Of a stretch of DNA of 64,000 bases, positions 1,785-58,500 are shown piece by piece. Each line of letters starts with the position of its first letter. Position 1 is the stretch's first letter. Under the pieces are notes generated by a model. It was not told where the DNA came from. It did no database searches and saw nothing but the letters and a program-made list of their open reading frames with translations. The stretch is from an uncultured Phycisphaeraceae bacterium (GTDB taxonomy: Bacteria > Planctomycetota > Phycisphaerae > UBA1845), in the NCBI GenBank assembly GCA_964648365.1, contig CAZYLK010000001.1:762-64761 (forward strand), written 5' to 3'. Made by a program: the position numbers and the translations under genes.

Positions 1785-1820
1785 GTCAGAGTCCGTTGAC
1801 TGACGCTGGAAACTCTCGTT

Positions 1821-9532: not shown

Positions 9533-9643
9533 CATGTGCGCACGTCGGCCCGTGGGTCCAGAGCCATGGCGGTGCGAGGGCGCCAACGTATACGACGCCG
9601 AGTCCTCACTTGCTTCTCCCGCGGCTCCCTCTTTCCCCTCCGG

Positions 9644-9675
9644 CATTCGTTATTCGCCATTCGCTATTCGCCATT
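9644..9675. repeat. Family B octamer array (GAATNNCG read on minus strand), 3 nt downstream of hypE stop
   Basis: The plus strand reads cattcgttattcgccattcgctattcgccatt. The minus sense reads aatggcgaatagcgaatggcgaataacgaatg. Confidence 0.9.
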
Positions 9676-9678
9676 TCC

Positions 9679-10728: not shown

Positions 10729-10858
10729 AGATTCCAAGGGATTGGGGTCAGGCATATCAGGACTCACGGCAGAGTGTGATCCGCAGATCTCGTAGATCAA
10801 AGAAGCATAGTGGGCTCACTGATCGCGACGGTTACGCGCGGCGGCCACTGCTTCCCCT

Positions 10859-10891
10859 AATTCGTTATTCGCTATTCGCTATTCGCCATTC
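10859..10891. repeat. Family B octamer array overlapping the 3' end of hypD
   Basis: aattcgttattcgctattcgctattcgccattc. The hypD C-terminus ...GRMANSE and its TAG stop (10872-10874) are encoded by the array. Confidence 0.9.
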
Positions 10892-12242: not shown

Positions 12243-12302
12243 GGGGAGTCAGAGAGAATAGGGAGTAAGGGAACAAGGGAGTAAGGGAGTAAGGGAAGAA
12301 GG
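12243..12302. repeat. Family A octamer array between hypF stop and hypC start
   Basis: ggggagtcagagagaatagggagtaagggaacaagggagtaagggagtaagggaagaagg. In the hyp (minus) sense it reads as TTACTCCC units ending 13 nt before the hypC ATG. Confidence 0.9.
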
Positions 12303-15367: not shown

Positions 15368-15489
15368 CACCGGTTGAAAACCGGTGCCACAAGAGAATCA
15401 CGGGCAAGATGCCCGTGCCACACGTGCCACACAGACGCCGGTTGCAAACCGGTGCCACAGGAGAATCACGGGCAAGATGCCCGTGCCAC
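15368..15489. repeat. Duplicated composite hairpin unit [H1 + H3] x2 between hypB stop and hypF start
   Basis: The four modules are caccggttgaaaaccggtgccac (15368-15390), cacgggcaagatgcccgtgccac (15399-15421), ccggttgcaaaccggtgccac (15438-15458) and cacgggcaagatgcccgtgccac (15467-15489). Confidence 0.9.
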
Positions 15490-33850: not shown

Positions 33851-33896
33851 GCGTGCCTCCGTCCCGGCTCAGACGCGCACACATGGCGCCCTCTGT

Positions 33897-33937
33897 CATT
33901 CGACATTCGCCATTCGCCATTCGCCATTCGCCATTCA
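33897..33937. repeat. Family B octamer array 2 nt downstream of rpoD stop
   Basis: The plus strand reads cattcgacattcgccattcgccattcgccattcgccattca. The minus sense reads GAATGGCG units. Confidence 0.9.
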
Positions 33938-33939: not shown

Positions 33940-35655
33940 CTACACCGCCTGCGGCTCATCCGGGCTGAGCGTGTCCAGGAAGCCCTCCAGCTTCCGCGCG
34001 CGGACCGGGTGCTGGAGCTTGCGGATGGCTTTGGCTTCGACCTGCCGCACGCGCTCGCGGGTGACCTTGAAGATTTTGCCGACCTCTTCCAGTGTGTAGG
34101 TGTAGCCGTCGCCGATGCCGTAGCGGAGCTTGATGATCTCGCGCTCGCGGTAGGTGAGCGTCTTGAGCACCTCTTCGATCCGGTCGCGGAGCATCTCGCT
34201 GCCGGCCGTGGTGATGGGCGACTCGGCCGCGTCGTCTTCGACGAAATCGCCGAAGTAGGAGTCCTCGCTCTCACCGACCGGGCGGTCCAGCGAGATGGGC
34301 TGGCGCGAAATCTTCAGCACGCGCCGCACTTCCGACAGCGGCATCTTGGCCTTCTTGGCGATCTCGTCGATGGTCGGCTCGCGGCCCAGATCCTGGAGCA
34401 ACTCGCGGTGCATGTTGCGCAGCCGGCTCATCGTCTCGATCATGTGGACCGGGATGCGGATGGTGCGGGCATGATCGGCGATGGCGCGGGTGATGGCCTG
34501 ACGAATCCACCACGTCGCATACGTGCTGAACTTGTAGCCGCGCTTGTACTCGTACTTGTCGACGGCGCGCATCAGTCCCGTGTTGCCCTCCTGGATGATG
34601 TCGAGGAAGGACAGGCCGCGGTTGCGGTATTTCTTGGCGATGCTGACCACCAGGCGCAGGTTGCCGCCGGAGAGTTGCCGCTTGGCGTGCTCGTACTCGC
34701 CGAAGACTCGCTGGATCGACTTGAGTGATTCGCCCAGATCCTTCGGCTTGGCCAGGCACAGCGACTGGATCCCCGCCAGTTCCTCCTTCATGGCGACCAG
34801 GTCTTCGTACGGAATCGACTGCCGCTTGGACTGGCCCGAGAGCCGGCGTTCAAGCTGAAGCATCTTGGAGTGCAGGCCGCGGGCCCGCTTCATCAGGGGC
34901 TGGATGCGACTGGTCCGCAGCGAAAGCTCTTCCAGCAGCTTGGCGACCCGGCGGCACCGCTGCTTCATGGCTTTCTGGATTTCCTTCTTCTTCGCGGCCG
35001 CCACGCGCGGCGCGTTCAGCTCCTCCCAGGCTTCCTCGTTCTTGTCGAGCATGGCTCGGACGCTGGCGAGGTTGCCGGGCATGCGGGTGAGGATGCGGGT
35101 CTTGGCGGCGTGCTCCGACGTGGAGATTTTCATCGTCCGGTCGAACGGCAGCCGGCTGTCCTGCACCTGTTCGAGGATGTCGACGGCCAGGCGCGAGGCG
35201 TAGTGAATTTCGAGCACTTTCTGGCGGAACGCCATGCGGGTCAGCTCGATCTTCTTGGCGAGGCGGATTTCCTCGTCCCGCGTCAGCAGCGGGATCTCGC
35301 CCATCTGGGTGAGGTACATCCGGACCGGGTCGTCGATGCGCTTGCCCGACGACTCGGCGGCCGGCGCCGACTCCTCGTGGGAGGACTCGTCCGTGCCGTC
35401 GCCCTCGCCACGGCCCTTGCCCTTGTTGGGCCGGCGACGGCGTTCGAAGGCGATGGCATCGAGTTCGTCAAGAACCTCGATTTTCGCCTCTTCAAATCGC
35501 GCAAGAAGCTGCTCGACCACGTCCCGGTCGATCGCGTCGTCCGGGAGGACGTTGTTCATGTCGTCCCAGGTGACGTACCCGCGCTGCGCTCCCCGCTCCA
35601 TCAGCGTCCCGATCGCAGCTTCGATCGGATCCGCGATGACTGCCGTTTCGCTCAT
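33940..35655 (-). CDS. rpoD: Primary sigma factor RpoD (sigma-70)
   Basis: Region 2 [27 protein letters not shown] and region 4 [27 protein letters not shown]. The ATG at 35655 was chosen over the GTG at 35670. Confidence 0.95.
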
Positions 35656-35851
35656 TGAAGAAGACTCCACTCTCTCTCGCCGCCCTGTCTTAATGAAATC
35701 TTAATGTCCTTGATACGCCGCCGTGCCCCGGTTGCACAATGGTGATTATGCCGCAAATTGCCAGGTCAGAAGCGATCTGTTCCACCACCGTTGCCGCTGT
35801 CTCGATACCCTCGAGCCCTGCCGTTGCTTCCGCCGATCGGATGCCGTCGCG

Positions 35852-38880: not shown

Positions 38881-39442
38881 TCCGCGACGCGGATGAGCGT
38901 GCGCGCTCACATGTTCGATGCACGCGACCGGCCCGGCGGACCACCCGTCGGGCCGGTTGGCTGTTTGCAGTTGCACGACGAGCCGGCTGGGCCGTCGGCT
39001 TACGACCCATTGCCCTGCGCGACCCGCCGCTGGTCTGGAGATCAGACGGGCCGAGCAGTCGCTCGACTTCGGTTTCGTGCACGCCGATGCGTACCGGACC
39101 GAAGTGGCCGGGGCGCAGGAACGTCTCCAAACTCACGTGTACCACCGGTCGCCTCCCCGGTCTCTGCGCGGCCGCGACCCTGCCCCTGCGATTACGAGCG
39201 GACGGTCGCCGGAACTGCCTTGTCGAGACCATCGCCGGAAACCCGCGTCCGGCATCATGGCCCCGTCAGCACGGAGGCTCCAGGTCGCCGTGATAATCGC
39301 ACCGCCGACGGTGTAATTGACGGAATCGGTCGAATGCCGCATAACCCCGGCATCAGGTCGCGCCGGGGGGCGGTCAACCCGGCGGCGGCTCGTGTCGCGG
39401 GGCCACCGTCTGGTGGCCTCCATCCCGAAAGGCGGTCGGACC

Positions 39443-40201
39443 ATGATTCTCGGCAAGTTCTGGCATGTGGTGATGGCGCAGATCAACAAACTGGCCAACA
39501 TTTTCTGGACGGCCGATCCCATCGCTCAGATGCAATACGAGTACGACCAGGCAGTCGCCCAGATGAAGGAAGGCCGCGAGGGATTAGAGCAGTACCGCGC
39601 CCTGGTGGAACGGGTCAGCCGTCAGGTCGCGACGACGAAGCGGCACGTCGCCAACCTGGAGGCCAAGGTCAAAGCCTACCTGCAAGCCGGCGATCGCGAG
39701 ACGGCCGCCAAGTTCGCGCTGGAACTTCAGAAGGCCCGGGCGGAACTCGTCGAGAACGAAGAGCAGCTCACGCTGCACGAGACGGCCTACAACAACAACC
39801 TGACCAAGATCAAGCACGCTACCGGCAAGCTGGCCAAGGTACGTGAGAAGATCCAGAAGTACGACGCCGAACTGAAGATGAGCAAGGCCGAGGGTGAGAT
39901 GGCCAAGCTGGCTCAGTCGTTCAACTTCGACGTGACGACGGACTTCGGCGCCATCGAATCGGTCATTCAGGACAAGATCAGCCTCAACCGGGCCAAGGCG
40001 CGGGTCGCATCGGATCTTTCCAGCGAAGGCATTGTGGACGTGCAGCGCGAGCAGGCGATGGAACAGGCCATGGCCGATCAGGCCCTGCGCGAGTTCGAGA
40101 TGGACCTCGGGCTGGTGACGCCGGAGACGTCGTCTGTTGCCGATGAGACAAAGCAGCTTGGACCGGCCGTGACCGAGGCGAATACGCAGACGCAGGGGTG
40201 A
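39443..40201 (+). CDS. pspA: PspA/IM30 (Vipp1) family protein
   Basis: 252 aa, MILGKFWHVVMAQINKLANIFWTADPIAQMQYEYDQAV... with long coiled coil typical of PspA/IM30. The start was set to ATG 39443. Confidence 0.85.
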   Translation: MILGKFWHVVMAQINKLANIFWTADPIAQMQYEYDQAVAQMKEGREGLEQYRALVERVSRQVATTKRHVANLEAKVKAYLQAGDRETAAKFALELQKARAELVENEEQLTLHETAYNNNLTKIKHATGKLAKVREKIQKYDAELKMSKAEGEMAKLAQSFNFDVTTDFGAIESVIQDKISLNRAKARVASDLSSEGIVDVQREQAMEQAMADQALREFEMDLGLVTPETSSVADETKQLGPAVTEANTQTQG

Positions 40202-40560
40202 GGAAGAAGGGAGTAAGGGAGTGAGGGAGTAAGGGAGTAAGGGAAGAGGAACGATGCAACATTGTTCTACATCGCGCGGTTCTGCCGGCTCGCGAATCGC
40301 TTCCCCATCGCACCTGAAACAGCGTGCGCGATCACGCGCCAGCGCCGAGCCGCGGGCTTCAGCCCGCGCGATCCCCCCGGAAGTGAAGCGGCTACGAATC
40401 GCGCACTGTGATTTAGAAGAAGGCACCTCGGAAAAAGGACTGAGTCGGATGCGGAAACGTCGGGATGTCAGATTCGACGTGCCATCCGCTCTTCCCTTAC
40501 TCCCTCACTCCCTTACTCCCTCACTCCCTTCTTCGGGAACTCCCTCACTCCCTCCTTCCG
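40201..40560. repeat. Intergenic repeat complex: family A array forward (about 40209-40250), H4 hairpin (40347-40371), family A array reverse complement (40490-40560)
   Basis: The forward array reads gggagtaagggagtgagggagtaagggagtaagggaag. The hairpin reads gagccgcgggcttcagcccgcgcga. The reverse array reads cttcccttactccctcactcccttactccctcactcccttcttcgggaactccctcactccctccttcc. Confidence 0.9.
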
Positions 40561-40571
40561 AGGAGTCCTAA

Positions 40572-42473
40572 GTGGAACGCTCTACGACGCCGGTCGCACC
40601 CAGCACGCTGCCCGACTGGTATCCCGCCTGGGCGCGGGAGCTGGCGAATCTTTATTTCTCCGGCACGACCTGCGTCTTTCTGCTGCACGGCAATGTACAC
40701 GATCTGGTTCGGGTCGAGGCCGGCGGGCGCATTGAGCATACGAACGTACTCGATTTTCTCGCGTCGCAGATCTTCGGCTCTTGGGACGTGGTGCTGCAAT
40801 ACGACCTGGCGGCCGGCACGCGGCCCAAGGCCGGCAGCGACCAGAAGCGCCTCCGAGATATGGTTGCGTATCTGACTGCCCGGCTGGGCGACATGGGGCA
40901 GTGGACGCGCGAAGCGGGCAAAAACCTGCTGCTCTTTGACAAGCTGCTGGAACGCAACCTGGTCGAAGACAAGCCGGCCGAGCGGCGCAGCATCGCGCTG
41001 CTGTTCGATTACGCCCAATATCTGGTTCCGGCGGGGGGGGCCGGGATGATGAGCGCCGCGGCCGGGGCAAACCTCGTGCGGCTGCTGAGTTGGGCGCAAA
41101 GTCCCTACCTGAAGAAGGTCAACGTCGCCATCTGCCTGGTGGCCGACAAACTGGCCGAGATCAACGATCGGCTCGTGCAAAGCCCGCACGTGGCGACGGT
41201 CGAGATTCCGATGCCCGATACCGAGGCGCGGCGGCGGTTTATCGAGTCGGAGCACGTCGAGATCGCCGCCGGGCGATGCGGATTGTGCGGAGCGACCGCC
41301 GAAGGCAGCGGTCCAGACCGCGCGGCAGAGGGCGGCGCCGCCGCCGGGGGGGGCGGTGCGGAGGCCGCCGGGCGTCACGCTGGCGATCACGGTCAGGGCG
41401 GCCATGACCATGACGGCCACGACGCCGCGGAACTGGCCGAAATGTCGAACGGCCTCAGCCTGATAAACCTGAACGTGATCCTCTCCCGCGCACGTCAGAA
41501 GGGTGGCCCGATCGACGCGTCCGGCTTCCGCCGGGCCAAGAAGGATCTGATCGAGCGGCAATGCGAGGGGCTGCTCGAGTTCATCACGCCCAAGCACACG
41601 CTGGACATGGTGGTCGGGCTGGAGGCCGCCAAGAGCCGGCTGCGGGCCGATGGCGACCTGCTGACCCGCGGCCACCTCGACGCCGCCCCCATGGGATACC
41701 TGGTCAGCGGACCGGTCGGCACCGGCAAGACGTTTCTGGCTGAGTGCTACGCCGGCTCGATCGGCGTGCCGTGCGTCAAGCTGCGGAACTTCCGCTCCAA
41801 GTACGTGGGCGAAACCGAAGGGAATCTCGAGCACGTGCTGACCGTGCTGCGGTCGCTGGGTCCGGTGGTGGTCATCATCGACGAGGCGGACGCGGCCCTC
41901 GGTGATCGCGATAACTCCGGCGATTCCGGCACGTCGAGCCGCGTCTTCTCGATGATCGCCAGCCAGATGGGCGACACGCGCTACCGCGGACGGATCGTGT
42001 GGATGTTGCTGACCTGCCGACCCGACCTGCTGCCGATCGACCTGAAGCGCCAGGGGCGGGCGGAGGTTCACATTCCGCTGTTCTATCCGCAGAGCGACGC
42101 AGAACTGGCGGAAATGATCCAGGTCATGGCCCGCAAGAACCGCATCGGGTTCGAACGGCCCATCGAAGCCGCGGCCATGCCCCACCGCGAGATGAGCGGG
42201 GCGGACATCGAGAGCGTGCTGGTGCTGGCGCGGCGGTGTGCACTGACCGACGGCCGCGAGAAAGTTCGGCCGGAAGACGTGGAGGCGGCCCTGGCGGATT
42301 TCATCCCGTCGGTGCAGGGGCTGGAAAAGGAGATGCAGGAACTCGCGGCCGTGCTGGAGTGTACGCAACTGAGTTTCCTGACGCCGGCCTGGCGTGAGAA
42401 GGTGGAAAAACCAGACGGCCGCACCCGCTTGCAGGAGCGGATGGTCGCGATCCGACAGTTGATTGAGCAGTGA
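40572..42473 (+). CDS. AAA+ ATPase, classical clade C-terminal module with large N-terminal region (possibly a degenerate AAA-like domain)
   Basis: The GTG start is preceded by AGGAG. Walker A GPVGTGKTF, Walker B VVIIDEAD, and SRH-like TCRPDLLPIDLKRQGRAEVHIPLFYP. There is an internal Gly/His/Asp-rich insertion. Confidence 0.8.
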   Translation: MERSTTPVAPSTLPDWYPAWARELANLYFSGTTCVFLLHGNVHDLVRVEAGGRIEHTNVLDFLASQIFGSWDVVLQYDLAAGTRPKAGSDQKRLRDMVAYLTARLGDMGQWTREAGKNLLLFDKLLERNLVEDKPAERRSIALLFDYAQYLVPAGGAGMMSAAAGANLVRLLSWAQSPYLKKVNVAICLVADKLAEINDRLVQSPHVATVEIPMPDTEARRRFIESEHVEIAAGRCGLCGATAEGSGPDRAAEGGAAAGGGGAEAAGRHAGDHGQGGHDHDGHDAAELAEMSNGLSLINLNVILSRARQKGGPIDASGFRRAKKDLIERQCEGLLEFITPKHTLDMVVGLEAAKSRLRADGDLLTRGHLDAAPMGYLVSGPVGTGKTFLAECYAGSIGVPCVKLRNFRSKYVGETEGNLEHVLTVLRSLGPVVVIIDEADAALGDRDNSGDSGTSSRVFSMIASQMGDTRYRGRIVWMLLTCRPDLLPIDLKRQGRAEVHIPLFYPQSDAELAEMIQVMARKNRIGFERPIEAAAMPHREMSGADIESVLVLARRCALTDGREKVRPEDVEAALADFIPSVQGLEKEMQELAAVLECTQLSFLTPAWREKVEKPDGRTRLQERMVAIRQLIEQ

Positions 42474-42489
42474 TCTGGTGTGGCACCAT

Positions 42490-42512
42490 GTGGCACCGGT
42501 TTTCAACCGGTG
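42490..42512. repeat. H1 hairpin just downstream of AAA ATPase stop
   Basis: gtggcaccggttttcaaccggtg, preceded by a partial gtggcacc. Confidence 0.9.
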
Positions 42513-42693: not shown

Positions 42694-43290
42694 ATGGCCA
42701 GAAAGAAAAAAGTCGCGAAAAAGAAGGCAAGCAAGAAGCGAGCCGCCGGTGGCTCCGGGAAGAAGGCCGCCAGGCGCCCGGCCGCAAAGAAGCGCGGCTC
42801 TGCGAAGAAGAAAGGCGCCGCCCGGAAAACTGCCGGCAGCGGCAAGAAGGCAGCCGGCAAGAAGAAGAGCACGGGCAAAAAGGCCGCCGCGCGGGGGACG
42901 GCCGGCGCTGGCGGGAAGAAGTCGAAGCGCGGCGCGAAGCCCGCATCTCGAAAGGGAACATCCACGCGGCGGGCGGCTGCTCCCGGCCGCAGCTTCCACG
43001 ACCGCCCGTCAAGCTGGCTCGACGCCAACGCGGACGTGCCCGTGATCGAACAGGCGGCCCGAACCATGACGACGTTCATGGAGGCGATGGCCGACGGCGT
43101 CATCGACGATGGCGAAGTGCAGGCGCAGGAGCGGCGGCTGGTGGCGCTGATGAAGGAGATCGAGCCGCAACTTGACGACGAACTGCACGCATCGGTCACG
43201 AAACTGCTGGCCGAACTGACCGCGTACGACCTGATGCAGGTGCTGTGCGCCATGCACAAGGCCCGCGGTCAGACGACGTTTCAGGGGTGA
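42694..43290 (+). CDS. Histone H1-like Lys/Ala/Gly-rich protein with helical acidic C-terminal domain
   Basis: MARKKKVAKKKASKKRAAGGSGKKAARRPAAKKRG... continues for about 110 aa. Next comes EAMADGVIDDGEVQAQERRLVALMKEIEPQLDDEL, a TerB-like ADG..D..E pattern that is tentative. Confidence 0.65.
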   Translation: MARKKKVAKKKASKKRAAGGSGKKAARRPAAKKRGSAKKKGAARKTAGSGKKAAGKKKSTGKKAAARGTAGAGGKKSKRGAKPASRKGTSTRRAAAPGRSFHDRPSSWLDANADVPVIEQAARTMTTFMEAMADGVIDDGEVQAQERRLVALMKEIEPQLDDELHASVTKLLAELTAYDLMQVLCAMHKARGQTTFQG

Positions 43291-43472
43291 CGTGGGGCGG
43301 TGGCCGCGGTCGCGCGGGTTTGGCGCTGCCTGCTTCGGAAGGGCTCTGTGCGGCCGTCGGTGCAGCGCCATCCTTCCCCAGAGATGGGCGCCGCGGAGTG
43401 CCAGGAGGCGAGCGAAGGAGCAGACCGGGCGACGCGCCTGCCGTCGACTCGCGAGGACAGGAGGTGACTTGA

Positions 43473-44279
43473 ATGAGGTCGGCGACCGGACAATCTCGAC
43501 AACTCGCACGGCTGTGTTCGCTGGGCGTCGTCTCGATCGCGGCGCTCATCATGTTCTTTCCAAGTTGCGACCGTGACTCGTCGTCATCGACCGGAGGTCG
43601 GTCCCCGTCGCGCCAGTCGGGCAAGCGCGTCAGCGCCGGCCCAATCGACCTGCCCCAGGCGGACCAGCGGCTGTGCACGGGTGTCGTGCTGCTGGTGGAC
43701 ACGTCGGGCAGCATGAACCAGAAGGTGCGCGATCGCGGCGGCGCGGAACAGCCCAAGCACGTGATCGCTCGAGCGGCGATCGACCGGATCGTGGCGTATA
43801 CCGATCAGTGGCAAACGCAGCATCCCGACCGCGTGCTGCACCTCGGCGTGCTCAATTTCAGCAGCTCCGCCCATACGGTCATGCCGCTGGCGGCGTTTGA
43901 CGCTGCCACGGCCGCGGAGGCCGCGACGCGCATACCGGCGCCGGGCGGAGGAACCGCCATCGGCTCAGCCCTGCAGGAAGGCTTCAAGGCGCTCTATGCC
44001 TCCGGCTGCGTGCGGAAGTACGTCGTCTGCATCACCGACGGCGAGAACACGTCCGGCCCGCCGCCCGACCGGGTCGCCCGCGCGCTGCACGGCCAGACGG
44101 AAGGCGACGTCGAGATCCACTTTGTTGCATTCGACACGTCGCCCGCTAAGTTCGCATTCCTGTCGAAGGTCAACGGCTACGTCGTCGAGGCGGCGGACGG
44201 GGCGCAGCTCGACGCGCGGCTGGCCGATATCTATGAGAAACGGATCCTGGCGGAGGCGATGACGCTCGAAAAGGAATAG
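43473..44279 (+). CDS. von Willebrand factor A (vWA) domain lipoprotein
   Basis: RBS AGGAGGTG. Lipobox-like MFFPSC. MIDAS motif LVDTSGSM. GGGTAIGSAL and ITDGENTSG segments. Confidence 0.85.
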   Translation: MRSATGQSRQLARLCSLGVVSIAALIMFFPSCDRDSSSSTGGRSPSRQSGKRVSAGPIDLPQADQRLCTGVVLLVDTSGSMNQKVRDRGGAEQPKHVIARAAIDRIVAYTDQWQTQHPDRVLHLGVLNFSSSAHTVMPLAAFDAATAAEAATRIPAPGGGTAIGSALQEGFKALYASGCVRKYVVCITDGENTSGPPPDRVARALHGQTEGDVEIHFVAFDTSPAKFAFLSKVNGYVVEAADGAQLDARLADIYEKRILAEAMTLEKE

Positions 44280-44563
44280 CGAATGTCGAATAGCGAATAA
44301 CGAATGAAGCTCGCGCCGGTGCAGCGATCCTTCAGAACGGGGAGCGTAAACGACCGGCTGCGGAGGAATGTCGAATGTCGAATGAAGAGCAAATCGGAGC
44401 GGAGCGGCGCTATCCGGGCCGGAGCCGGAGACCACTGACAGAGGAAATGGGGATCGAGAATGGAGCCGTCTGACGCTGGAGCAGCATGTTCGTCTTCTCT
44501 GCATTCGACATTCGACATTCGCCATTCGACATTGAACCTTAGCCATTCGCCATTCGACATTCC
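44275..44563. repeat. Family B octamer arrays: forward 44275-44309 and 44366-44387, reverse complement 44502-44562
   Basis: The forward arrays read aatagcgaatgtcgaatagcgaataacgaatgaag and gaatgtcgaatgtcgaatgaag. The reverse array reads cattcgacattcgacattcgccattcgacatt..agccattcgccattcgacattcc. The vWA stop TAG (44277-44279) lies in the first unit. Confidence 0.9.
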
Positions 44564-44603
44564 CAACGCTGGTAGCGTTGGATAGTTAGACAGGAGATAC
44601 ACT

Positions 44604-46376
44604 ATGGCAGGAAAGCCGAAAGCATCTTTTTTCGTGGTTATGGCCATCGTTGTGATTGGCCTTGTGGGCTTCGCGGGGTATCGGCTGATGAGTTCCGGCG
44701 ACGACGCCGGGGACGGAGCGCGCACCGCCGCAACGCAGCCGCCCGCGTCCGACTCGTCGCCGTCGACGACGCCACCGGCCCAGCCCGCGGATGGCGCGGC
44801 CGAGGCGCCCGACGCCGCCGGCGTCACCACCGTCAAGGAATACAAGTTCGTTCCCAGCGAGCGGCTGCCGGAAGTTCGTGGCATCTCGGGATATGAGCTT
44901 GAAGACAACACGGTCCGCTTCGCGCTGAACGTGTGGGCCGGGTGGGGGCCGATTATCTTCGCCAACGATGGCTTCCGCGCCGGCAAGGAGTGGAAAACGC
45001 CGGACGGCCAGACCTTCAAGGTGGAACTGGTCTTGATCGACAACCCGGTCGCCATGCGCGACGCCTACGCGGCCGGGAGCGTGCAGATCGGCTGGGCGAC
45101 GCTGGACATGGTGCCGCTGTTTATGGAGGGGTTTGTCGATACCAACGGCCGGCCGCGCGACTCGCGGGTCATGCCGCGCATCTATCAACAGGTCGACTGG
45201 TCGAACGGCGGCGACGGCATCGTCGTCCGGGAGAACATCAAGACGGTCGCCGACCTGCGCGGCAAGACGATTGCACTGGCACAGAACTCGCCCTCGCAGT
45301 ATTTCGCGCTGAACATGCTGATCGCCGGGGGCATTCAGCCGTCAGAGGTGCAGTTCGTTTACACCGAGGACGCCTTCCAGGCGGCGGCGGCGTTTAATGC
45401 TCAGCAGTCGATCGCGGGCGCCGTTTCCTGGGCGCCGGACATCTACAACCTTGAAAGCGTGCGCGGCAACCGGATGCTGGTGACTACGGCGACCGCGAAC
45501 AAGCTGATCGCCGACGTGTGGTTTGCCCGTGCGGACTTCGCCAAGGACCATCCCGGCATCGTCGAGGGACTGGTGCGCGGCATTTTCGACGCCATGATCG
45601 ACCTGAAGGACGAGTCGAACCGCAAGCACTGCGCGGAACTGATGGCGACCGGTTACAACCTGCCGCCCAGCGACACCCTCGCCATGTTCGGCGACGCCCA
45701 CAGCACGAACTGGGCCGAGAACTATCAGTTCTTCGTCAATCAGAACAACCCGGCCAACTTCGAGCGGGTCTGGAACCAGGCCTATTACCTCTATCGCCGG
45801 ATCGGCGCGATCACGCATCAGCCGGTGCCGTTCGATCAGGTGATGGATTACTCGATCATCGACAAGCTGGGCAAAGAGCCGAAGTACTCGAGCCAGAAGG
45901 ACGAGTACAAGATGCAGTTCACGCCGACGACGGTGGGCGAAATCCGGGCCGAGGAAGAGATTCTTACCAACACGGTCTTTATCCACTTCTTCCCCAACAG
46001 TTGGGATCTTCACAAGAAGGTCACCAAGAAGGTGGACGGCAAAGATGTCGAGGAAATGTATGATCCGAACGTTGATTTCGTACTGGAGGATATCGCCAAG
46101 CTGGTCGGGCAGTTCGGCGCGGCTCGCATCGTCATCGAAGGGCACACCGACAGCTCGATGAAAGGGAAAGTCCCGCCCAGCTTGGTGAAAGAGTTGTCCT
46201 TGCATCGCGCCAAGTCGGTCATGGAGCAGCTTGTACAAAAGTACAGCCTTGATCCCAACCAGTTCGGCGTCGAGGGTATGGGCTGGGACCGGCCGGCGGA
46301 TTCCAACGACCCGGAGAACCACGCCAAGAACCGCCGCGTCGAGGTGAAAGTCTACCCGGCCGAGGCGGGGGGGTAG
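44604..46376 (+). CDS. NitT/TauT-type ABC substrate-binding protein fused to a C-terminal OmpA-like domain
   Basis: The N-terminus is a TM/signal anchor. The SBP body is NrtA/SsuA-like (GKTIALAQNSPSQYFALNML). The C-terminal part GHTDSS...LSLHRAKSV...NRRVEVKV is the OmpA/MotB peptidoglycan-binding signature. AGGAG lies 7 nt before the ATG. Confidence 0.8.
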   Translation: MAGKPKASFFVVMAIVVIGLVGFAGYRLMSSGDDAGDGARTAATQPPASDSSPSTTPPAQPADGAAEAPDAAGVTTVKEYKFVPSERLPEVRGISGYELEDNTVRFALNVWAGWGPIIFANDGFRAGKEWKTPDGQTFKVELVLIDNPVAMRDAYAAGSVQIGWATLDMVPLFMEGFVDTNGRPRDSRVMPRIYQQVDWSNGGDGIVVRENIKTVADLRGKTIALAQNSPSQYFALNMLIAGGIQPSEVQFVYTEDAFQAAAAFNAQQSIAGAVSWAPDIYNLESVRGNRMLVTTATANKLIADVWFARADFAKDHPGIVEGLVRGIFDAMIDLKDESNRKHCAELMATGYNLPPSDTLAMFGDAHSTNWAENYQFFVNQNNPANFERVWNQAYYLYRRIGAITHQPVPFDQVMDYSIIDKLGKEPKYSSQKDEYKMQFTPTTVGEIRAEEEILTNTVFIHFFPNSWDLHKKVTKKVDGKDVEEMYDPNVDFVLEDIAKLVGQFGAARIVIEGHTDSSMKGKVPPSLVKELSLHRAKSVMEQLVQKYSLDPNQFGVEGMGWDRPADSNDPENHAKNRRVEVKVYPAEAGG

Positions 46377-46385: not shown

Positions 46386-46576
46386 GTGGCACCGGTTCCG
46401 GTGTGGCACCGGTTTCCAACCGGTGAGTCCGGTGTGGCACCGGTTTGCAACCGGTGAGTCTGATGTGGCACCGGTTTGCAACCGGTGGATCACCTTCCGG
46501 GGTCTGATGCAGGGTTACGCGCACTGGTTGCAAACCAGTGCCACAATTGAAGACACCGGTTGAAAACCGGTGCCAC
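46386..46576. repeat. H1 hairpin array (one partial and three full forward copies, two reverse copies) between SBP gene and permease gene
   Basis: Forward copies gtggcaccggtttSCaaccggtg lie at 46403, 46434 and 46465 with a 31-bp period. Reverse copies are cactggttgcaaaccagtgccac at 46522 and caccggttgaaaaccggtgccac at 46554. Confidence 0.9.
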
Positions 46577-48616: not shown

Positions 48617-49504
48617 ATGCGCCGCCCGGCCGGAAAACTCGGCACCTATCTGAAGGCAGCGTTCACCCACCACTGGAACCTGCTGGCCTTTTTCGGTGCG
48701 CTGGGTTTTTCCCTGCTCAGCGGCATGCCGGACGTGCTGATCCCTCTGGTGGTGGCCGGCGAGATGGTCTATGTGGGCGGGCTGGCCGCGCATCCGAAGT
48801 TCCAGGCCTACATCGACGCCCAGGCGGCCAAGGCGGTCCGGCAGGACGGCTCGTCCCGCTCGCAGCAGATGCTCAATACCATGCTGCGCCGGCTCCCGCC
48901 GCGCACGATTGACCGGTTCGAGACGCTGCGCAACCGCTGCCTGGAACTGCGACAACTCGCCCTGGAACTGAAAGACCCCGGCCACACCGGCGGCGCGCGC
49001 CCGCTCGACGACATGCAGATGTCCGGCCTGGACCGGCTGCTGTGGATCTACCTGCGGTTGCTGTTTACCGAGCATTCGCTGGAGCGCTTCCAGGAGCGCA
49101 CCCACCCGTCGCAGGTCGAAGCGGACATCGAGGCGCTGGAGGCCCAGCTTTCCGACAGCGCGTCGATCGCCGACGACATTCAGCGGCAGAAGGTTCAGCG
49201 CACCCTTCAGGACAACCTCCAGACCTGCCGCGACCGGCTCGCCAACCTGCAGAAAGCCCGTGACAACCTCACGGTGGTCAAGCTCGAACTCGACCGGCTG
49301 GAAAACAAAATCCGCGCCTTAAGCGAACTGCCCCTCAACCGCCAGGAGCCCGACTACATCACTGCCCAGGTGGACGCGGTGGCATCGAGCATGGTGCAGA
49401 CCGAGCAGACGATGAACGAACTGCAATTCGCCACCGGCCTGGAAACGGCCGACGAAGCCGTGCCGCCGCTGATGAGCCGGCCGGTGGCGATGATGCAGGA
49501 ATAG
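48617..49504 (+). CDS. Hypothetical membrane protein with two N-terminal TM helices and long coiled coil
   Basis: 295-aa ORF 6 nt after the ABC ATPase gene. It has WNLLAFFGALGFSLLSGMPDVLIPLVVAGEMVYVGGL followed by Q/L/E-rich heptads. Confidence 0.6.
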   Translation: MRRPAGKLGTYLKAAFTHHWNLLAFFGALGFSLLSGMPDVLIPLVVAGEMVYVGGLAAHPKFQAYIDAQAAKAVRQDGSSRSQQMLNTMLRRLPPRTIDRFETLRNRCLELRQLALELKDPGHTGGARPLDDMQMSGLDRLLWIYLRLLFTEHSLERFQERTHPSQVEADIEALEAQLSDSASIADDIQRQKVQRTLQDNLQTCRDRLANLQKARDNLTVVKLELDRLENKIRALSELPLNRQEPDYITAQVDAVASSMVQTEQTMNELQFATGLETADEAVPPLMSRPVAMMQE

Positions 49505-49534
49505 CGAATAGCGAATGGCGAATAACGAATGAAG
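49500..49534. repeat. Family B octamer array spanning a stop codon and the argH start codon
   Basis: aatagcgaatagcgaatggcgaataacgaatgaag. The TAG at 49502-49504 ends the upstream gene, and the ATG at 49529-49531 (unit GAATGAAG) starts argH. Confidence 0.9.
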
Positions 49535-50890
49535 AAAGGCGATTCCCAACCCACTCCGTCGCGCCTCTGGGACAAGGGCGACGCGCTCGATCGGTTGATC
49601 CATGCATTTACCGTCGGTGACGATCCGCAGGTGGACCTTCACCTGGTGTACTGGGACTGCCTCGGCTCGGCCGCACATGCGCGGACGCTGGAGAAGGCCG
49701 GCGTGCTCACGAGCGAGGAGTGCGCCGGGCTGATCGCCGGGCTTGCCGAAATCGCACGGCTTGCGTCGGAGGGCCGATTCGAGATTCCGCTCGAACTGGA
49801 AGATTGTCACACGGCCATCGAGGCGCACCTCACGACAACCGCAGGCGAGGCGGGGCAGAAGATTCACACGGGGCGCTCGCGCAACGACCAGGTCGCGACC
49901 GCGATGCGGCTCTACATGCGCCATCACGCGCTGCGGTGGATGGAACTGCTCGACCGGTTTGCGTGTGCCTGCCTGGAGCGGGCGCGGCGCGACGGCGACG
50001 TGCCGATGCCGGGGTATACGCATCTGCAACCGGCGATGCCGTCGAGCGTCGGGTTGTGGCTGGCGGCGTGGGCAGAGGCTGCCGTCGAGCACATGGCATC
50101 CGGGCTGGATCTGCTCCATCGCCTCGACCGCTGCCCGCTGGGGACCGGGGCCGGCTTCGGGATATCGCTGCCGCTGGATCGCCAATGGACGGCGGAGTTG
50201 CTCGGCTTTTCGAAGATTCAGCGCAATCCGATCGACGTGCAAAACAGCCGCGGGCGGTTCGAGACGTATTTCCTGCGCGTTGGCGTGGACGTTGCGGGAA
50301 TGCTAGAGAAGCTGGCCGTGGATCTGGTGCTGTTTGCGACGCGCGAGTTCGGTTTCGTCAAGCTGCCGGTCGAGATGACCACCGGTTCGTCCATCATGCC
50401 GCAGAAGCGCAATCCGGACGTGGTGGAACTGGTCCGCGGCCACGCGGGCGTGGTTCGCGGGCGGCTGGCGCAGCTCGAATGGGTCTGCGCGAAGTTGCCG
50501 TCGAGCTATCACCGCGACCTGCAATTGACCAAGGCGCCGGTCGTGGCTGGGGTGCAAGACGTGGATGCCATGCTGACCGTCATGACGCGCGTCGTGGACG
50601 GCCTCGCTTTTGACGCACAGCGGCTGCGTGCCGCGATGTCCGACGAACTGTACGCGGCAGATGCGGCCTACGCCCTGGTGCGCCAGGGCGTGCCGTTTCG
50701 CGAGGCGTATCGCCGCGTCGGCGCCGACATCGCTGGTGGCGCGTTTTCGGCCCCGGATGGGGCGGGCCATTCAGCCGGAAGCGTTCAGCCGCAGGCGCTG
50801 GGAGATCTCAACGAAGAACGCGCACGGCTGCTGGCCGCCGCGGAGGCGTTCCGCGGGCGGGAGCGGACGTGCAGTGCGTTGTTGAAATAG
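49529..50890 (+). CDS. argH: Argininosuccinate lyase
   Basis: Fumarate-lyase signature TGSSIMPQKRNPDVVEL and an N-terminus LWDKG...FTVGDD typical of ArgH. Confidence 0.92.
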   Translation: MKKGDSQPTPSRLWDKGDALDRLIHAFTVGDDPQVDLHLVYWDCLGSAAHARTLEKAGVLTSEECAGLIAGLAEIARLASEGRFEIPLELEDCHTAIEAHLTTTAGEAGQKIHTGRSRNDQVATAMRLYMRHHALRWMELLDRFACACLERARRDGDVPMPGYTHLQPAMPSSVGLWLAAWAEAAVEHMASGLDLLHRLDRCPLGTGAGFGISLPLDRQWTAELLGFSKIQRNPIDVQNSRGRFETYFLRVGVDVAGMLEKLAVDLVLFATREFGFVKLPVEMTTGSSIMPQKRNPDVVELVRGHAGVVRGRLAQLEWVCAKLPSSYHRDLQLTKAPVVAGVQDVDAMLTVMTRVVDGLAFDAQRLRAAMSDELYAADAAYALVRQGVPFREAYRRVGADIAGGAFSAPDGAGHSAGSVQPQALGDLNEERARLLAAAEAFRGRERTCSALLK

Positions 50891-54500: not shown

Positions 54501-55497
54501 GACAGTCGGGGCGCAGCCGGCGCGGGTGGGCCGCCTCGCCAATGTCCATGTTCATTCCGCCGACGATATGCGGGCCTGGCGCGTCGAGTCCAATGGGAAC
54601 CGGCAGGAGGAGGCCGTCCGCCATGCCGCGGCGGTGCTGGCGCCGCTGCCGCCGGCCGAACCTGTTGCGGCCGCCCATCCGCGCGTCGAAGCCGTGGTGC
54701 GCCGACTGGACGCGCGCTACCCGTCGCTTGCAGTCACGTCCGTCCGTGCCGTCGTCGGCGCCAGCGAGGTCAAGCGTACGGCCGACGCCAGTGGAGATTC
54801 CGAGCGAGCCGCGGGCCTCAGCCCGCGCGGACGCACCGGTCAGACATCGGCGGCGGCGGCGCAGGCGCCCGCAACGAAGCAGACCGCCCAGTCGGCGGGG
54901 CAGGCCCGGCCCGATCTGGAGGCGCCTTCCGCGCGCGCGGTTGCATCGGCTCGCGGGGAAGACGCCCGCCGTCGTGGCATCCTGACGCATCTCGTCTTGC
55001 AGCACGTGGATCTGTCCGCGGCGCGCGATCGCCCCGGCGTGGAGGCCGAAGTCGCCCGACTGGTTGACGCCGGGACGCTAGCGGCGGAGGACGTGGAGCA
55101 CGTCGATGCAGACGGCATCGGCTGGTTTGTGACCACCGACCTGGCCGATCGCCTGCGCAGCGCGGGCGGCGCCTATCGCCGCGAGTTCCCCTACATCGCC
55201 CGCGAGGATCCGGCGTTCTTCGACCCGCAGGTGCGGGCGGAGGATGACGAGGATCAGGTGCTCGTGCGCGGCATTATCGACGGCGTCCTGGAATCGCCCG
55301 ACGGGGTGGCCGTGGTCGACTTCAAGACCGACCGGGTCGAACCGGGTGCTGTCGTGGAACGCGCTTTGCAATATCATGGGCAGATGGCGCTGTACGCGCG
55401 GGCGCTGGAGCGACTCCTGCGCAAACCGGTCGCGGCCGCCCACCTGGTGTTCCTGTCGCCCCGGGTGATTCACAGGATCGATGCGCCCGGTCGCTGA
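51529..55497 (+). CDS. UvrD/PcrA-family helicase with C-terminal PD-(D/E)xK nuclease (AddA-like)
   Basis: Walker A AAAGSGKTSVL, VDEFQDINPLQ, SIHMAKGLEFPVVF and VALTRAREKL motifs. The C-terminal nuclease motif is RGIIDGVL...VVDFKTD. No AddB-like gene is in the window. Confidence 0.85.
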   Translation: MSAIAPTPQQRQAIETAGCEVIVSAAAGSGKTSVLAGRCAYLVSEAPAPWRCDADALLVLTFTEAAAAQMRSRIVDRLRERVRQRPEDARLRRQLSLIDLAEIGTLHAFCLSLVRRYFSTLGVDPDVRVLDADEAALIERDAMDGLFERLYARQAVGVTGASGGGNAGADAGRGVADVLAGRFVELVEVYGLGRDAAIAEAVLRLSRFLDSLPDPEGWLHTHVHAAAANPAGLVDRKLAQLRDELARQLEHLRAQWAAIDGQESRCRLVKDALRAYGVQLNEWAAMAAAPAEGADAASAGACLDRLRGAMAAFEFKKPHGVRRRPGEELPPHVRYAVETFDEVQKGLFSGRLMKAFGRFSTAEWIAGAGAVVPHAAALADLAIEFRAEYLARKRALGAIDFSDLERLAYTLLSADGEGGGQVAEELRARFAHVCVDEFQDINPLQAAIIRAVSRTGDGANLFVVGDVKQSIYRFRLAEPELFLEAWRQGRQTDRGGAIPLQSNFRSRSEVIGFANLLFEQLMRPGAGAVVYDDHARLVAGRADAAAPPPQLVELHLLARRLDAAPGSENADESGEHAVDSPPPDGDDAVRAFDPTDPAEWNPIEREAFLIGRRIGQLMTDGSVTPDGKRLQYRDIAILLRSTKVNAAQVAAMLTSMGIPVHSDAAVPFLSSQEVREMLDALRVLDNPRQDIPLAGVMRTGVLGESFTEDELVEIRAMDRSVAFHQAVHRFGQSGPAGATQRKLSRLLATIDQYRHEAGTRPLADVVWDIYDRGGYLAHVGGLPRGLHRRANLIHLHERARRFGTFRRQGLHYFLRYIELLESRDADLSDSAPSPGAEDAVRIMSIHMAKGLEFPVVFLAGTGTRFNMQDSRGMILFSRRSGIGLRVVDRDKYVHYPGLAHSLVVDEVERDAREEELRVMYVALTRAREKLIVIGTPVCKDIDEWVAAARGTGRPPTLYAVDRAGCMLDWIVPCMASAPVGDVAWPEGASSTTVGAQPARVGRLANVHVHSADDMRAWRVESNGNRQEEAVRHAAAVLAPLPPAEPVAAAHPRVEAVVRRLDARYPSLAVTSVRAVVGASEVKRTADASGDSERAAGLSPRGRTGQTSAAAAQAPATKQTAQSAGQARPDLEAPSARAVASARGEDARRRGILTHLVLQHVDLSAARDRPGVEAEVARLVDAGTLAAEDVEHVDADGIGWFVTTDLADRLRSAGGAYRREFPYIAREDPAFFDPQVRAEDDEDQVLVRGIIDGVLESPDGVAVVDFKTDRVEPGAVVERALQYHGQMALYARALERLLRKPVAAAHLVFLSPRVIHRIDAPGR
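54806..54831. repeat. H4 hairpin inside the AddA-like coding sequence
   Basis: gagccgcgggcctcagcccgcgcgga, translated in frame as SERAAGLSPRGR. Confidence 0.85.
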
Positions 55498-55516
55498 CCG
55501 GGGGATGGAATGCTGT

Positions 55517-58500
55517 ATGCGAGTGCTTGGCGGCTACGACGCGCAACTGGATGCACGGGTGCGGGAACTCGGCCGTGAGATCTTCGAGCGGGCGGCCGAC
55601 GCGACCCCGCGGTTCGGGCAGCGCGCCTGGGCGCTGGAGAAGCTGACCTCCTGGGTGGACAGCGACCCGAAGCTCAAGGCGGCGGCCTTCGAGTTCGTGG
55701 CGACGCTGCCGTCGCTGCGGGATGACCATGACATCGCCCGCCACCTGGCGGAGTTCATGGCACAGCGCGAGGTTGATCTGCCGCTGCCGGCGCGGTGGGC
55801 GCTGGGGCTGGGTTCAGACCACCGGTTGCAAACCGGTGCCACATCGGATCACCGGTTGCAAACCGGTGCCACATCGGATCACCGGTTGCAAACCGGTGCC
55901 ACACCGGATCACCGGTTACAAACCGGTGCCACACCGGATCACCAACTGGAGACCGGTGCCACAGGGGACCACCGGTTGCAAACCGGTGCCACAGGTGACG
56001 GCAATGCGACGTTGCTCTCGTCGCTGATCGGCGTGATGGCCCGTCGCGGGGCGTCCGCGATGGCGGAGCGCTTCATCACCGGGCACGACGAGGCCAGCGT
56101 CACGGCGACCCTGGAGCGATTCCGCTCGCAGGGCATGACGTTCACGCTCGACGTGCTGGGCGAGTCTACGACCAGCGATGCCGTAGCGGAACGATATCTC
56201 AACACCTACCTCGAACTGATCGAGCACCTGTGCCCACGCGCGGCCACGTGGTCGAACGCGCCGACGATTGACCGGACCGATCGCGGACAGCAGCCGCGGG
56301 TCAACATTTCCATCAAGCTGACCGGCCTCGATCCGCACTTCGACCCCGTCGATCCGCAGCGTTCCATTGACGAAGTCTGCGCCCGCATCACGCCGCTCCT
56401 GCGCCGGTCGCGGGAACTCGGCGCGTTCGTCAACGTGGACATGGAGGCCTTCCGCTATCGCGACCTGACGCTCGACCTGTTTGAGCATCTGATGATGCGA
56501 CCGGAATTCCGGGATTGGGAAGATGTCGGCATCGTGGTTCAGGCCTACCTTGCGGACGGCGAGCGTGACCTGGCCCGTCTGCTCGACTGGGGTCGCAATC
56601 GCGGTTCGCGGTTCGCGGTGCGACTCGTCAAGGGCGCTTATTGGGACACAGAGGTCGCGCTGGCGGCGGAGGCGGGTCTGCCTCCGCCGGTGTGGACGCA
56701 GAAGTGGCAGTCCGACGCCTGCTACGAGCGCATGACGCGCGTCATGCTCGCCCATACGGATGTCATTCGACCGTGCTTCGCCAGCCACAACGTCCGCTCG
56801 CTGGCTCACGTGCTGGGCACGGCCGAGCGATACGGACTGACGCCGCGGTCGTATGAAGTCCAGATGCTCTACGGCATGGGCGACCCTCTCAAGGATGCGA
56901 TGGTTCGCATGGGCCAGTGCCTGCGCGTCTACTCGCCCTACGGCGACATGATCCGCGGCATGGCCTACCTGATCCGCCGGCTTATCGAGAACACGTCGAA
57001 CGACTCGTTCCTGAAGCAGGGCTTCACGCATCGTGCGGGCTACGACCGTCTGCTCGCCGATCCCGCGATCGCCGGGCCGGCGAGGAACGGGCGGGGCGGC
57101 AGCGGCAATGGCGCGGATTCAGGTGCGCCCGAGGCATCGACGCCCGGAGTCGCGCAATCCGACTTCGGCCGTCGCGAAACCCGCGACGCCATGACCGCCG
57201 CGCTGAAGCGCCGGGGCGACGTTCCGACGTTCATGCCCTACGTCGCCGGTCGGTTTATCACCGCGACGGCGACGGAGGATGCCGCGGATGCGTCGCGCCC
57301 GGGCGTCGCCATCGCCAGGATCGGTCTGGCCCGGCCGGCGGACGTGGACGATGCCGTCGCCGCGGCCCGAACCGCCGCTGCCGCGTGGTCTGCACGCAGC
57401 GATGCGGAGCGCCGGGAGGCGGTGGCAGCGCTGACGGAACGCATGATCACCCGGCGGATGGAACTGGCGGCGTGGCTGATCCGCGACGCTGGGATGACAT
57501 GGCGTGCGGCGGACATCGAAGTGGCGGCCGCGATCCGTGCCTGTCGCCGGTGGGGGGCGACCCTGCCTGCCGCGACTCGCCCGGGCGGCAGGGTCTGGGC
57601 AGCGTTACTGCCCTGGAACGCGCCGCTGTCGGTGGCTGCGGAAGTGCTGGCCTGCGGGTTGGCCGCCGGACGGGCCGTCATACTCAAGCCGGATCTGCGC
57701 GCCGCTTGCGCCGCCTGCGTGCTGGCGACGCTCGTCGACGAGTTGGAGCTGCCCGCGGGTCTTGCAGCGATTGTTGCCGGGCCTGATCCCGCTACGGCTG
57801 GACGCCTGACGCGGCATACCGGCGTCGACCGCCTGATTCGTATCGGCCCGCCCGATCCCGACCTGGACGCCGCATCCGGCGAGGGGGCCGGGCGTGCCTT
57901 CGGCCGGACGTTTGTGCCCGATTCGGTGGTTGTCGTCGGGCACACGGCCAATCTCGACGCAGCCGTGTGGGGTGCGGTCCAGTCGGCGTACGACTTCGCC
58001 GGGCAGTCGTTCTCCGCCGCCAAGCGGATTATCGTCGATGCGGCGGTCCACGACGCGTTCGTCGAGCGGCTGAAGGAGGCGGTCGAAAGCCTGATGATCG
58101 GGCCGGCCGATGCCCCGCTGACGCTGGTCGGGCCGATGATCGACGAGGCGGCGAGGGAGCGGTTTCGGCGATCCGTCGCAGCCGTGGCCTCGATCTCTCG
58201 GATCGTCGTCGATCGCACCGCTGCCGCTGACGCGGCGTCCGGCTGCGTCGGTCCACTGCTTCTGACGGGGGCGCAGCTCGCGCCCGCGGCGATCGGCCCC
58301 GTGGCCTGCGTCTACAGAGCCGCCAGTTTCGAGCAGGCGTTGCGGATGGCGAACGCACGCCCCGCACCCGCGGCGGCGGTCTACACCCGCACGCCGTCGC
58401 AGCTTCGCGCCGCTCGCATCGCCCTGGCGGAATCGGAGGTTACGATAAACACGCCGGTGGCTGGCGGAGGCTGGGGCGGCCTGGGGCAGTTGGTTCTATC

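Follow-up and report, generated by a model that had tools for sequence, protein, structure and literature searches.

Tandem arrays of a seven-nucleotide unit, CGAATRN, lie against the stop codons of several genes in the DNA analyzed here, a stretch of 64,000 nucleotides (nt; hereafter the window) that spans positions 762 to 64,761 of the forward strand of contig CAZYLK010000001.1, in the assembly GCA_964648365.1 of an uncultured Phycisphaeraceae bacterium. On balance, we incline to the view that these arrays constitute a heptanucleotide simple-sequence repeat, a lineage-specific dispersed intergenic family of a Phycisphaerae-type planctomycete. Comparison of orthologous loci shows that arrays were gained exactly at native stops in the common ancestor with the closest relative, protein length remaining unchanged, and that the family sequence stayed about 92% identical, with synonymous sites down to about 62%.

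A preliminary description of this DNA had taken the unit for an octamer. Nevertheless, the period is 7 at every site (Tandem Repeats Finder), and the unit is thus the heptamer CGAATRN, or GAATNNC as written on the purine-rich strand: matches to GAATNNCG begin at 7-nt intervals, with a G shared between neighbors. The arrays then listed are all present, their coordinates being off by 1-2 nt at most. Lone GAATNNCG words are not enriched in the window (64 found, 51 ± 7.6 expected); it is the tandem arrangement that is enriched, six arrays having four or more exact CGAAT spaced 7 nt apart, of which 100 first-order Markov simulations produced none. Altogether, seven arrays occupy five spacers, lying outside the Pfam-supported genes or overlapping only their last codons. 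Four are on the reverse strand: A4 (44501-44562), an inverted copy of nine units, two of them degenerate; A5 (33896-33937), with seven units (TGAATGG, CGAATGG four times, CGAATGT, CGAATGA); A6 (10858-10892), with five (AGAATGG, CGAATAG, CGAATAG, CGAATAA, CGAATTA); and A7 (9643-9677), also with five (GAAATGG, CGAATAG, CGAATGG, CGAATAA, CGAATGC). On the forward strand are A1 (44274-44309; GGAATAG, CGAATGT, CGAATAG, CGAATAA, CGAATGA), A2 (44366-44387; GGAATGT, CGAATGT, CGAATGA) and A3 (49499-49534; GGAATAG, CGAATAG, CGAATGG, CGAATAA, CGAATGA), which have five, three and five units respectively, each followed by AG.

The five-unit arrays have an architecture of their own, with a distinct first unit (GGAAT), a distinct penultimate unit (CGAATAA) and a distinct last one (CGAATGA-AG). 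Their unit order is fixed (xG, AG/GT, xG, AA, GA/GC/TA) and is kept in four paralogous arrays and in the ortholog of the related locus L193. A conserved terminal unit had been proposed from the outset, and this holds in part: GAATAACGAAT closes four of the seven arrays at their 3′ end, each of these four having exactly five units, and GAATAACGAATGAAG closes two, so that the terminal unit is recurrent but not universal. The defined polarity of the arrays, proposed at the same time, finds further support in the relative, where the terminal GAATAACGAAT(G/T)AAG recurs (L193 9899-9913; L197 17723-17737 and 17839-17853). Short-read (Logan) contigs of the same organism from two sequencing runs (L119, equal to window positions 42775-44301, L124 and L125) reproduce the starts of A1 and A6 at 100% identity and end inside the arrays. 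An artefact of a single assembly is thereby excluded; in practical terms the arrays fragment short-read assemblies at gene ends, where such repeats will consequently be under-represented.

With regard to the genes, confirmed by Pfam, all five gene-adjacent arrays run in the sense orientation, as first reported, and start between -20 and +3 nt from the native stop. The TAG of the vWA protein gene (43473-44279, +; stop at 44277-44279) and that of gene X, of unknown function (48617-49504, +; stop at 49502-49504), fall within the first unit of A1 and A3 respectively, both genes terminating GAA TAG, and the TAG of hypD (10872-11972, -; stop at 10872-10874) lies in the third unit of A6. The two other arrays follow intact stops: the TAG of rpoD (33940-35670, -; stop at 33940-33942) precedes A5 by 2 nt, and the TGA of hypE (9679-10800, -; stop at 9679-9681) precedes A7 by 1-3 nt, HypE retaining its canonical Pro-Arg-Ile-Cys (PRIC) C-terminus before it. 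The spacer that holds A7 is convergent with the forward-strand gene 8987-9532.

Two of these junctions deserve a closer description. A6 overlaps the last six codons and the TAG of hypD, the hypE start lying 58 nt further on. The six codons that it encodes are R M A N S E (10872-10892). Its first unit (AGA ATG GCG) reads R-M-A, which is also found in the HypD of the relative (CGG ATG GCT, L120 11080-11098), a match that points to a pre-existing GAATGGC-like sequence as the place where the array was seeded or, by microhomology, inserted. In turn, A3 occupies the whole 24-nt spacer between gene X and the gene of argininosuccinate lyase (49529-50890, +), whose ATG (49529-49531) lies in the last unit, so that the start and second codons of the lyase (ATG AAG) come from the terminal unit of the array. 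This ATG is the only possible start, and two codons upstream of it an in-frame TAA, in the penultimate unit, interrupts the frame; no Shine-Dalgarno-like sequence was found in the 24-nt spacer, and the alignment to solved lyases begins at residue 19.

Orientation follows transcription and not replication: GC skew is positive over most of the window (cumulative value from about 0 to 0.49), yet arrays occur on both strands, following the genes, and a polarity set by the replication strand was accordingly discarded. The link with stop codons is partly built in. Indeed, since the period of 7 is coprime to 3 and most units carry TAG, TAA or TGA, the GAAT strand shuts all frames within three units, and any open reading frame (ORF) that enters an array in sense must end there; the complementary strand is stop-free and open in all frames. 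However, this built-in closure does not explain hypE and rpoD, whose native stops precede the arrays, nor does it explain the unchanged protein length. TAG ends four of the five array-bearing genes and 15 of the 45 genes overall, a marginal difference (P about 0.04).

The best protein matches of the window are to Phycisphaerales or Phycisphaerae metagenome-assembled genomes (MAGs). The closest relative is a Phycisphaerales MAG (JGI 3300007351, contig Ga0104751_1000554), syntenic over most of the window, and its contig with the hyp genes is also available as GCA_003597935.1. At the vWA stop, L193 has a five-unit array (GGAATAG, CGAGTGG, CGAATAG, CGAATAA, CGAATTA, then AG) identical to A1 at 33 of 36 positions, and the more distant L194 and L195 have none; the vWA protein nevertheless extends six residues beyond the conserved ILAEA in this genome and in all three loci. 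A related five-unit array follows gene X in L193, again with no array in L194 or L195, and there it is not followed by the lyase gene, which was thus joined to the array in the present lineage. At the rpoD stop, L197 has four units against seven here and L198 has no array; copy number thus varies at this site. C-terminal lengths are unchanged in the array-free L194, L195 and L198. Taken together, these alignments show that homogeneous arrays change copy number, while interrupted five-unit arrays keep both the number and the order of their units. At hypD, no GAATNNC array exists in L120, none in L122, where hypD and hypE overlap, and none in L123, where hypE does not follow hypD; nor does the hypE stop of L120 carry a GAATNNC array. 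After the conserved QY, HypD ends with eight residues here and with seven in L120. The preliminary description had held that close relatives with the same genes and no arrays, together with unchanged expression, would speak against its reading, and the first half of this is found: relatives at about 80% protein identity share genes and stop positions and lack the arrays. As read from these loci, the arrays are gained or lost gene by gene.

The hyp locus of the relative has repeats of other kinds. The hypD-hypE spacer, 71 nt long here, measures 660 nt in L120 (11099-11757), the two genes overlapping in L122, and in L120 it carries short repeats of the GCAGAT(G/T) type right after the stop, as well as several inverted repeats. 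An AAGGTTG heptamer/octamer array follows hypF in the same contig (L120 9606-9673), beginning at the stop codon.

The three orthologous arrays are identical at 81 of 88 positions (about 92%), against 62.4% at four-fold degenerate sites in seven genes (n = 1363; P = 2e-10), although paralogous arrays within one genome are about as similar as orthologous ones. The result therefore shows that both lineages have kept the family sequence, selection and gene conversion among copies being indistinguishable as causes.

The spacer between the vWA gene and the gene of a substrate-binding/OmpA fusion protein (SBP; 44604-46376, +) measures 324 nt here against 116 nt in L193, 65 nt in L194 and 71 nt in L195. 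It has A1, the next 20 nt or so and the ribosome-binding region GACAGGAGATA in common with the L193 spacer; A2, a unique sequence of 116 nt, the inverted A4 and an 8-bp hairpin are specific to this genome. The inverted array had been noticed in the preliminary description, and it is borne out as A4, which is antisense to the genes on either side, converges with A1 and A2, and is present in none of L193, L194 and L195. The small hairpin described with it also stands (44563-44581, +; CCAACGCT-GGT-AGCGTTGG, 8 bp); it abuts A4, 22 nt before the SBP start codon, and is missing from the L193 spacer. A2 is the perfect 19-nt complement of 44502-44520. In the predicted RNA fold, 44281-44307 pairs with 44536-44562 and 44366-44384 with 44502-44520, so that A1 would pair with the distal part of A4 and A2 with its proximal part in a nested stem of -125 kcal/mol (z = -2.6). 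In the model, the addition of an inverted copy thus makes a long nested stem possible. What follows A4 and the small hairpin is ATAGTTAGACAGG, with no T-run.

Furthermore, the 58 nt between A1 and A2 hold a 28-nt core, TCAGAACGGGGAGCGTAAACGACCGGCT (44332-44359, +), which by BLAST belongs to a separate dispersed repeat family with copies in L197, L120/L121 and L130/L131. L197 has several copies, two of them directly after heptamer arrays: a module made of GAATAACGAATTAAG and the core directly follows the stop of a ResB-like gene, the stop being inside TGAAT, and this array and core module is duplicated 119 nt later, after a seven-unit array. The duplication indicates that heptamer arrays are one module in a mosaic of short repeat families. 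The core itself (CCGAACCGGGAGCGTAAGCGACCGGCT, about 28 nt) was located at window positions 44332-44359, at L197 17761-17788, 17880-17907 and 20094-20559, at L120 7785-7982 and in L130/L131; in L120 it forms six tandem 33-nt (11-codon) copies inside the hypF ORF, and in L197 it also forms an array with a period of 75 nt.

The unit is not confined to planctomycetes. An exact scan of one genome per species found CGAATRN arrays in at least 118 stretches, the matches listed including Verrucomicrobiota, Planctomycetota, Chloroflexota, Bacteroidota, Acidobacteriota, Proteobacteria, Cyanobacteria and one archaeon, with CGAATGA, CGAATAG and CGAATAA predominating in arrays across phyla among those matches. 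A scan of metagenomes for GAATRGCGAATRGCGAATAACGAAT gave 67 further stretches with 36-70% G+C. In viral contigs, four copies of CGAATGA occur at eight loci, and control heptamers matched in composition at 3, 0 and 5; on these counts the CGAATRN unit is not clearly special, and the idea of a single special family across phyla was abandoned. The wide distribution probably reflects the excess that heptamer repeats show in bacteria at large.

The stop-proximal polarity first described for five genes also holds at three orthologous sites of the closest relative. It is extended by a census of 218 de-duplicated arrays, for which genes were called by a simple procedure that recovers those supported by Pfam in the window: arrays that overlap a stop or lie within 10 nt of one are 46 in sense and 7 in antisense. 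By distance, the stop of the upstream ORF is inside the array in 29 sense cases and in no antisense case (which is impossible by construction, that strand being stop-free), at 0-3 nt in 8 and 2 cases, at 4-10 nt in 9 and 5, and at more than 30 nt in 36 and 61. Arrays inside called ORFs are antisense in 25 cases and sense in 8, those between co-directional genes are sense in 34 and antisense in 18, and the two sets of counts together show no global strand bias, which was therefore rejected. Since arrays inside ORFs are mostly antisense, the polarity, though real, is restricted to arrays in contact with the end of a gene. Of the inverted pairs no more than 300 nt apart, 52 are convergent (the GAAT strand first on either strand) and 5 divergent, the gaps being mostly of 5-70 nt. 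Only six pairs lie between convergent genes and 25 between co-directional ones, which disposes of the notion that each of two convergent genes contributes one array. A role of arrays as donors of start codons, true for argininosuccinate lyase, is not enriched either: among the 218 arrays the ATG of the last unit shows no excess of long ORFs (frames 11, 7 and 12). As for the antisense arrays within called ORFs (25 of 218; loci L001-L118 and L126-L192), they would encode heptapeptide repeats of the HSPFAIR or SFVIRH type.

The view that we favor, a dispersed heptanucleotide simple-sequence repeat, may be put as follows. Arrays would originate and spread by replication slippage, together with recombination or gene conversion among copies, and would act as modules of a mosaic in which other short repeats also take part. 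Their polarity would stem in part from a coding filter, as the GAAT strand can abut or overlap the end of a gene without extending the protein, and in part from a second cause acting on the transcript or on transcription. Located as they are, the arrays would form the first nucleotides of a 3′ untranslated region (UTR) or of an intercistronic RNA, as a purine-rich, C-poor and single-stranded tract.

Several points weigh against this view. The scope is narrow, this genome having been examined over the 64-kb window, and the census uses crude gene calls and loci picked by the motif itself. The coding filter alone does not predict arrays 1-3 nt after the intact native stops of hypE and rpoD, nor the excess of sense arrays among those located at 0-10 nt without overlap (17 against 7). 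In addition, the GGGAATC repeat of Xanthomonas, which is stop-free, has the same stop-proximal bias for the coding strand (PMC4692102). Finally, the high conservation and the fixed order of the units are more suggestive of a sequence under selection, or of a recognized element, than of a slipping microsatellite.

The main rival is precisely a strand-specific signal kept by selection and working at the level of the transcript or of transcription, which we would admit as a tentative possibility: either a platform for an RNA-binding protein after the stop, or a C-poor tract related to Rho, in the manner of an "anti-rut" (the reverse of a Rho utilization site). In the latter version, Rho would be loaded on antisense or read-through RNA by the complement (CAUUCGN)n, rich in C/U and poor in G; antisense transcription into gene ends would be blocked by solo arrays, and convergent pairs would stop transcription in both directions. 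The orientation with the gene strand and the contact with intact stops speak for such a signal, as do the 92% identity of orthologs against 62% at four-fold sites, the conserved unit order and the predicted single-stranded state of solo arrays. The excess of convergent over divergent pairs (52 against 5), mostly between co-directional genes, points the same way, and the complement of GAATGGC offers three C and one G per unit; moreover, an octamer of the window, GGGAGTRA, and the Xanthomonas GGGAATC (PMC4692102) are likewise purine-rich in sense after stops. Nevertheless, the closest relative has intact genes at two of the five sites and no array there, concerted evolution could account for the conservation, and the C-rich array of the vWA-SBP spacer is predicted to be base-paired, which would mask a rut site. 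The particular proposal of a signal maintained by selection just after the translation stop, for example a sense tract that shields the 3′ UTR from Rho and a complement that loads it, appears to us quite doubtful. If true, a strand-specific Rho signal would give a general function to the excess of heptamers next to stops in G+C-rich bacteria such as Xanthomonas and planctomycetes.

The convergent pairs lend themselves to another reading, which we regard as unlikely: arrays as terminal inverted repeats or remnants of non-autonomous elements, of the miniature inverted-repeat transposable element (MITE), foldback or REPIN (repetitive extragenic palindrome doublet) type, inserting at the 3′ ends of genes, with solo arrays as half-elements. 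In the vWA-SBP spacer the convergent arrays do have the GGAAT "start" outside and GAATG(A/C)AGAG inside, and the part from A2 to A4 is absent from L193, L194 and L195. Terminal inverted repeats are present both there (convergent 44366-44562) and in the octamer arrays at 40194-40561, which stand at the edges of the spacer between the PspA and AAA genes; as this spacer measures 370 nt here and 9 nt in L193, the whole octamer-bounded block is an insertion. The census pairs, 52 convergent and 5 divergent with gaps mostly of 5-70 nt, fit this picture, and array and core modules recur at non-orthologous sites. However, no target-site duplication is evident against the empty sites of L193, where the junctions are short and diverged; most arrays are solo and their units are not palindromic. 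The internal segments of 58 nt and 116 nt are unique in the window, only the 28-nt core recurring elsewhere and behaving as a separate repeat, and a multi-copy MITE was discarded on the ground that the internal spacers have no second copy in the window. No transposase is linked to the arrays in the 64-kb window, although its proteins were not all scanned for RAYT, the transposase of such elements.

Arrays at gene ends could also be imagined as transcription terminators or as hairpins that stabilize the 3′ end of messenger RNA, which we hold to be very improbable. The location at the 3′ end of genes, the predicted two-tier stem of 44274-44562 and the presence at many loci elsewhere of an inverted copy 5-70 nt downstream are consistent with it. 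But four of the five gene-adjacent arrays have no partner, and solo arrays, folded as RNA, are predicted to have minimum free energies of -3 to -11 kcal/mol with z from -0.3 to +2.2, no better than shuffles; the modeling thus shows solo arrays to be unstructured. A scan for promoters and terminators over 43400-45000 found no hairpin with a T-run at the arrays or beyond them, A3 takes up a whole 24-nt spacer between two genes and runs into the start codon of the second, and the paired architecture is not in the closest relative. Termination by the arrays themselves, envisaged in the preliminary description, is thus unsupported and, the solo arrays being unstructured and the scan empty, the arrays are not intrinsic terminators. 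A known RNA family was likewise rejected, Rfam 15 giving no match at the gathering threshold over the whole window and none at E ≤ 1 over 44150-44700.

That the arrays are back-up stop codons in three frames, which would free read-through or frameshifted ribosomes near the gene end, is hardly credible: units of period 7 with TAG, TAA or TGA do shut all frames within three units (the argument is also made in PMC4679880) and CGAATGA, CGAATAG and CGAATAA do predominate across phyla among the matches listed, but the rpoD array, with its GAATGG and GAATGT units, offers no in-frame stop for 14 codons after the TAG, the Xanthomonas GGGAATC has no stops (PMC4692102), and one extra stop would suffice where five to seven units are found.

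The heptamers share the window with other repeats. The second tandem family, with the 8-nt unit GGGAGTRA, behaves like the heptamers and is found at 571-606/641-669, 8801-8845, 12256-12302 and 40194-40251/40493-40561; its sense arrays start 0-10 nt past the stops of 681-1886 (-), 7312-8790 (+) and 39317-40201 (+), and convergent inverted partners exist at two sites. Every array of this family finishes with GGGAAGAG/GGGAAGAA, similar to the GAATGAAGAG at the end of the heptamer arrays, and those at the end of the cytochrome b gene and upstream of hypC are conserved in L120. Tandem units of 28-31 nt, each with the hairpin GTGGCACCGGTTTGCAACCGGTG, have the look of repetitive extragenic palindromic (REP) sequences and are shared with the relative: they occur at 46397-46487, 55820-55993, 42479-42497 and 15384-15489 of the window and at L120 6568-6776, 14814-14897 and 19819-19938, starting directly after the stops of 40572-42473 and 44604-46376. 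The array at 55820-55993 (period 30) is inside the ORF 55481-58606, and either it is coding or the start of this ORF was called too early.

Among the systems to which the CGAATRN family may be compared, the REP and REPIN sequences of proteobacteria are short extragenic repeats located 3′ of genes, as inverted doublets that form hairpins and as singlets, and their copies are kept similar. Their units are imperfect palindromes tied to RAYT transposases. In contrast, the units described here are direct 7-nt repeats without self-complementarity, solo arrays do not fold, and no RAYT was identified in the 64-kb window, not all of whose proteins were scanned for one.

Tandem heptads are also known in the ctxAB promoter of Vibrio cholerae, where the number of TTTTGAT copies is reported to matter for a DNA-binding regulator (bioRxiv 10.1101/2021.05.14.444153). 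Those heptads lie in a promoter, upstream of a gene, and act on DNA, unlike the present arrays, which follow stops and track the coding strand. Direct repeats of TAACTGA are known from marine Beggiatoaceae, cyanobacteria and Bacteroidetes (MacGregor, 2015, PMC4679880); these are heptamers in two to six copies that are also intergenic in almost all cases and forward-oriented, overlap the ends of ORFs by only a few codons and have a scattered phylogeny. They close all frames on the forward strand, and the same closure argument was made for them; most sets end 1 nt before a start codon, and a role in translation initiation was proposed (PMC4679880). Here the unit is different, arrays are anchored at stops and only A3 touches a start codon.

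In bacterial intergenic DNA, heptamers are the most over-represented of the long simple-sequence repeats, known since the short tandemly repeated repetitive (STRR) sequences of cyanobacteria. Their excess among long repeats of this kind in bacteria was noted by Mrazek (2007, as cited in PMC4692102), and tandem heptanucleotides were described early in Calothrix (also cited there). With the STRR of Calothrix and Nostoc the present family shares dispersed intergenic tandem heptanucleotides and several unit families per genome; units and phylum differ, and STRR sequences are not known to have a conserved terminal unit.

A close parallel is the GGGAATC heptamer that Rehm et al. (2015, PMC4692102) studied in Xanthomonas campestris and X. 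axonopodis. Where it overlaps a stop or lies within 50 bp of one, it strongly favors the coding strand; it prefers about four units, forms 70-75 convergent inverted pairs and is mostly transcribed, and its positions are 83% conserved between the two species with differing lengths. As in those genomes of about 65% G+C, the arrays described here are made of tandem 7-nt intergenic units, purine-rich on the coding strand and close to stops, with convergent inverted pairs and with positions that relatives share with variations in length. The unit is nevertheless another one: GAATAGC, GAATGGC, GAATGTC and GAATAAC have no GGG tract and hence form no quadruplex, unlike the Xanthomonas repeat, and most CGAATRN units carry a stop where GGGAATC is stop-free in all frames. 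The fixed order of variant units and the distinct terminal unit of the five-unit arrays also set the family apart from GGGAATC. The CGAATRN family is thus one that shares the defining features of heptameric intergenic simple-sequence repeats, a class already described. To this class the planctomycete family adds a gain at native stops, conservation above that of synonymous sites and a recurrent five-unit architecture which, with its distinct terminal unit, is found again at unrelated genes and in the sister genome, properties that argue that some heptamer arrays are more than the debris of slippage.

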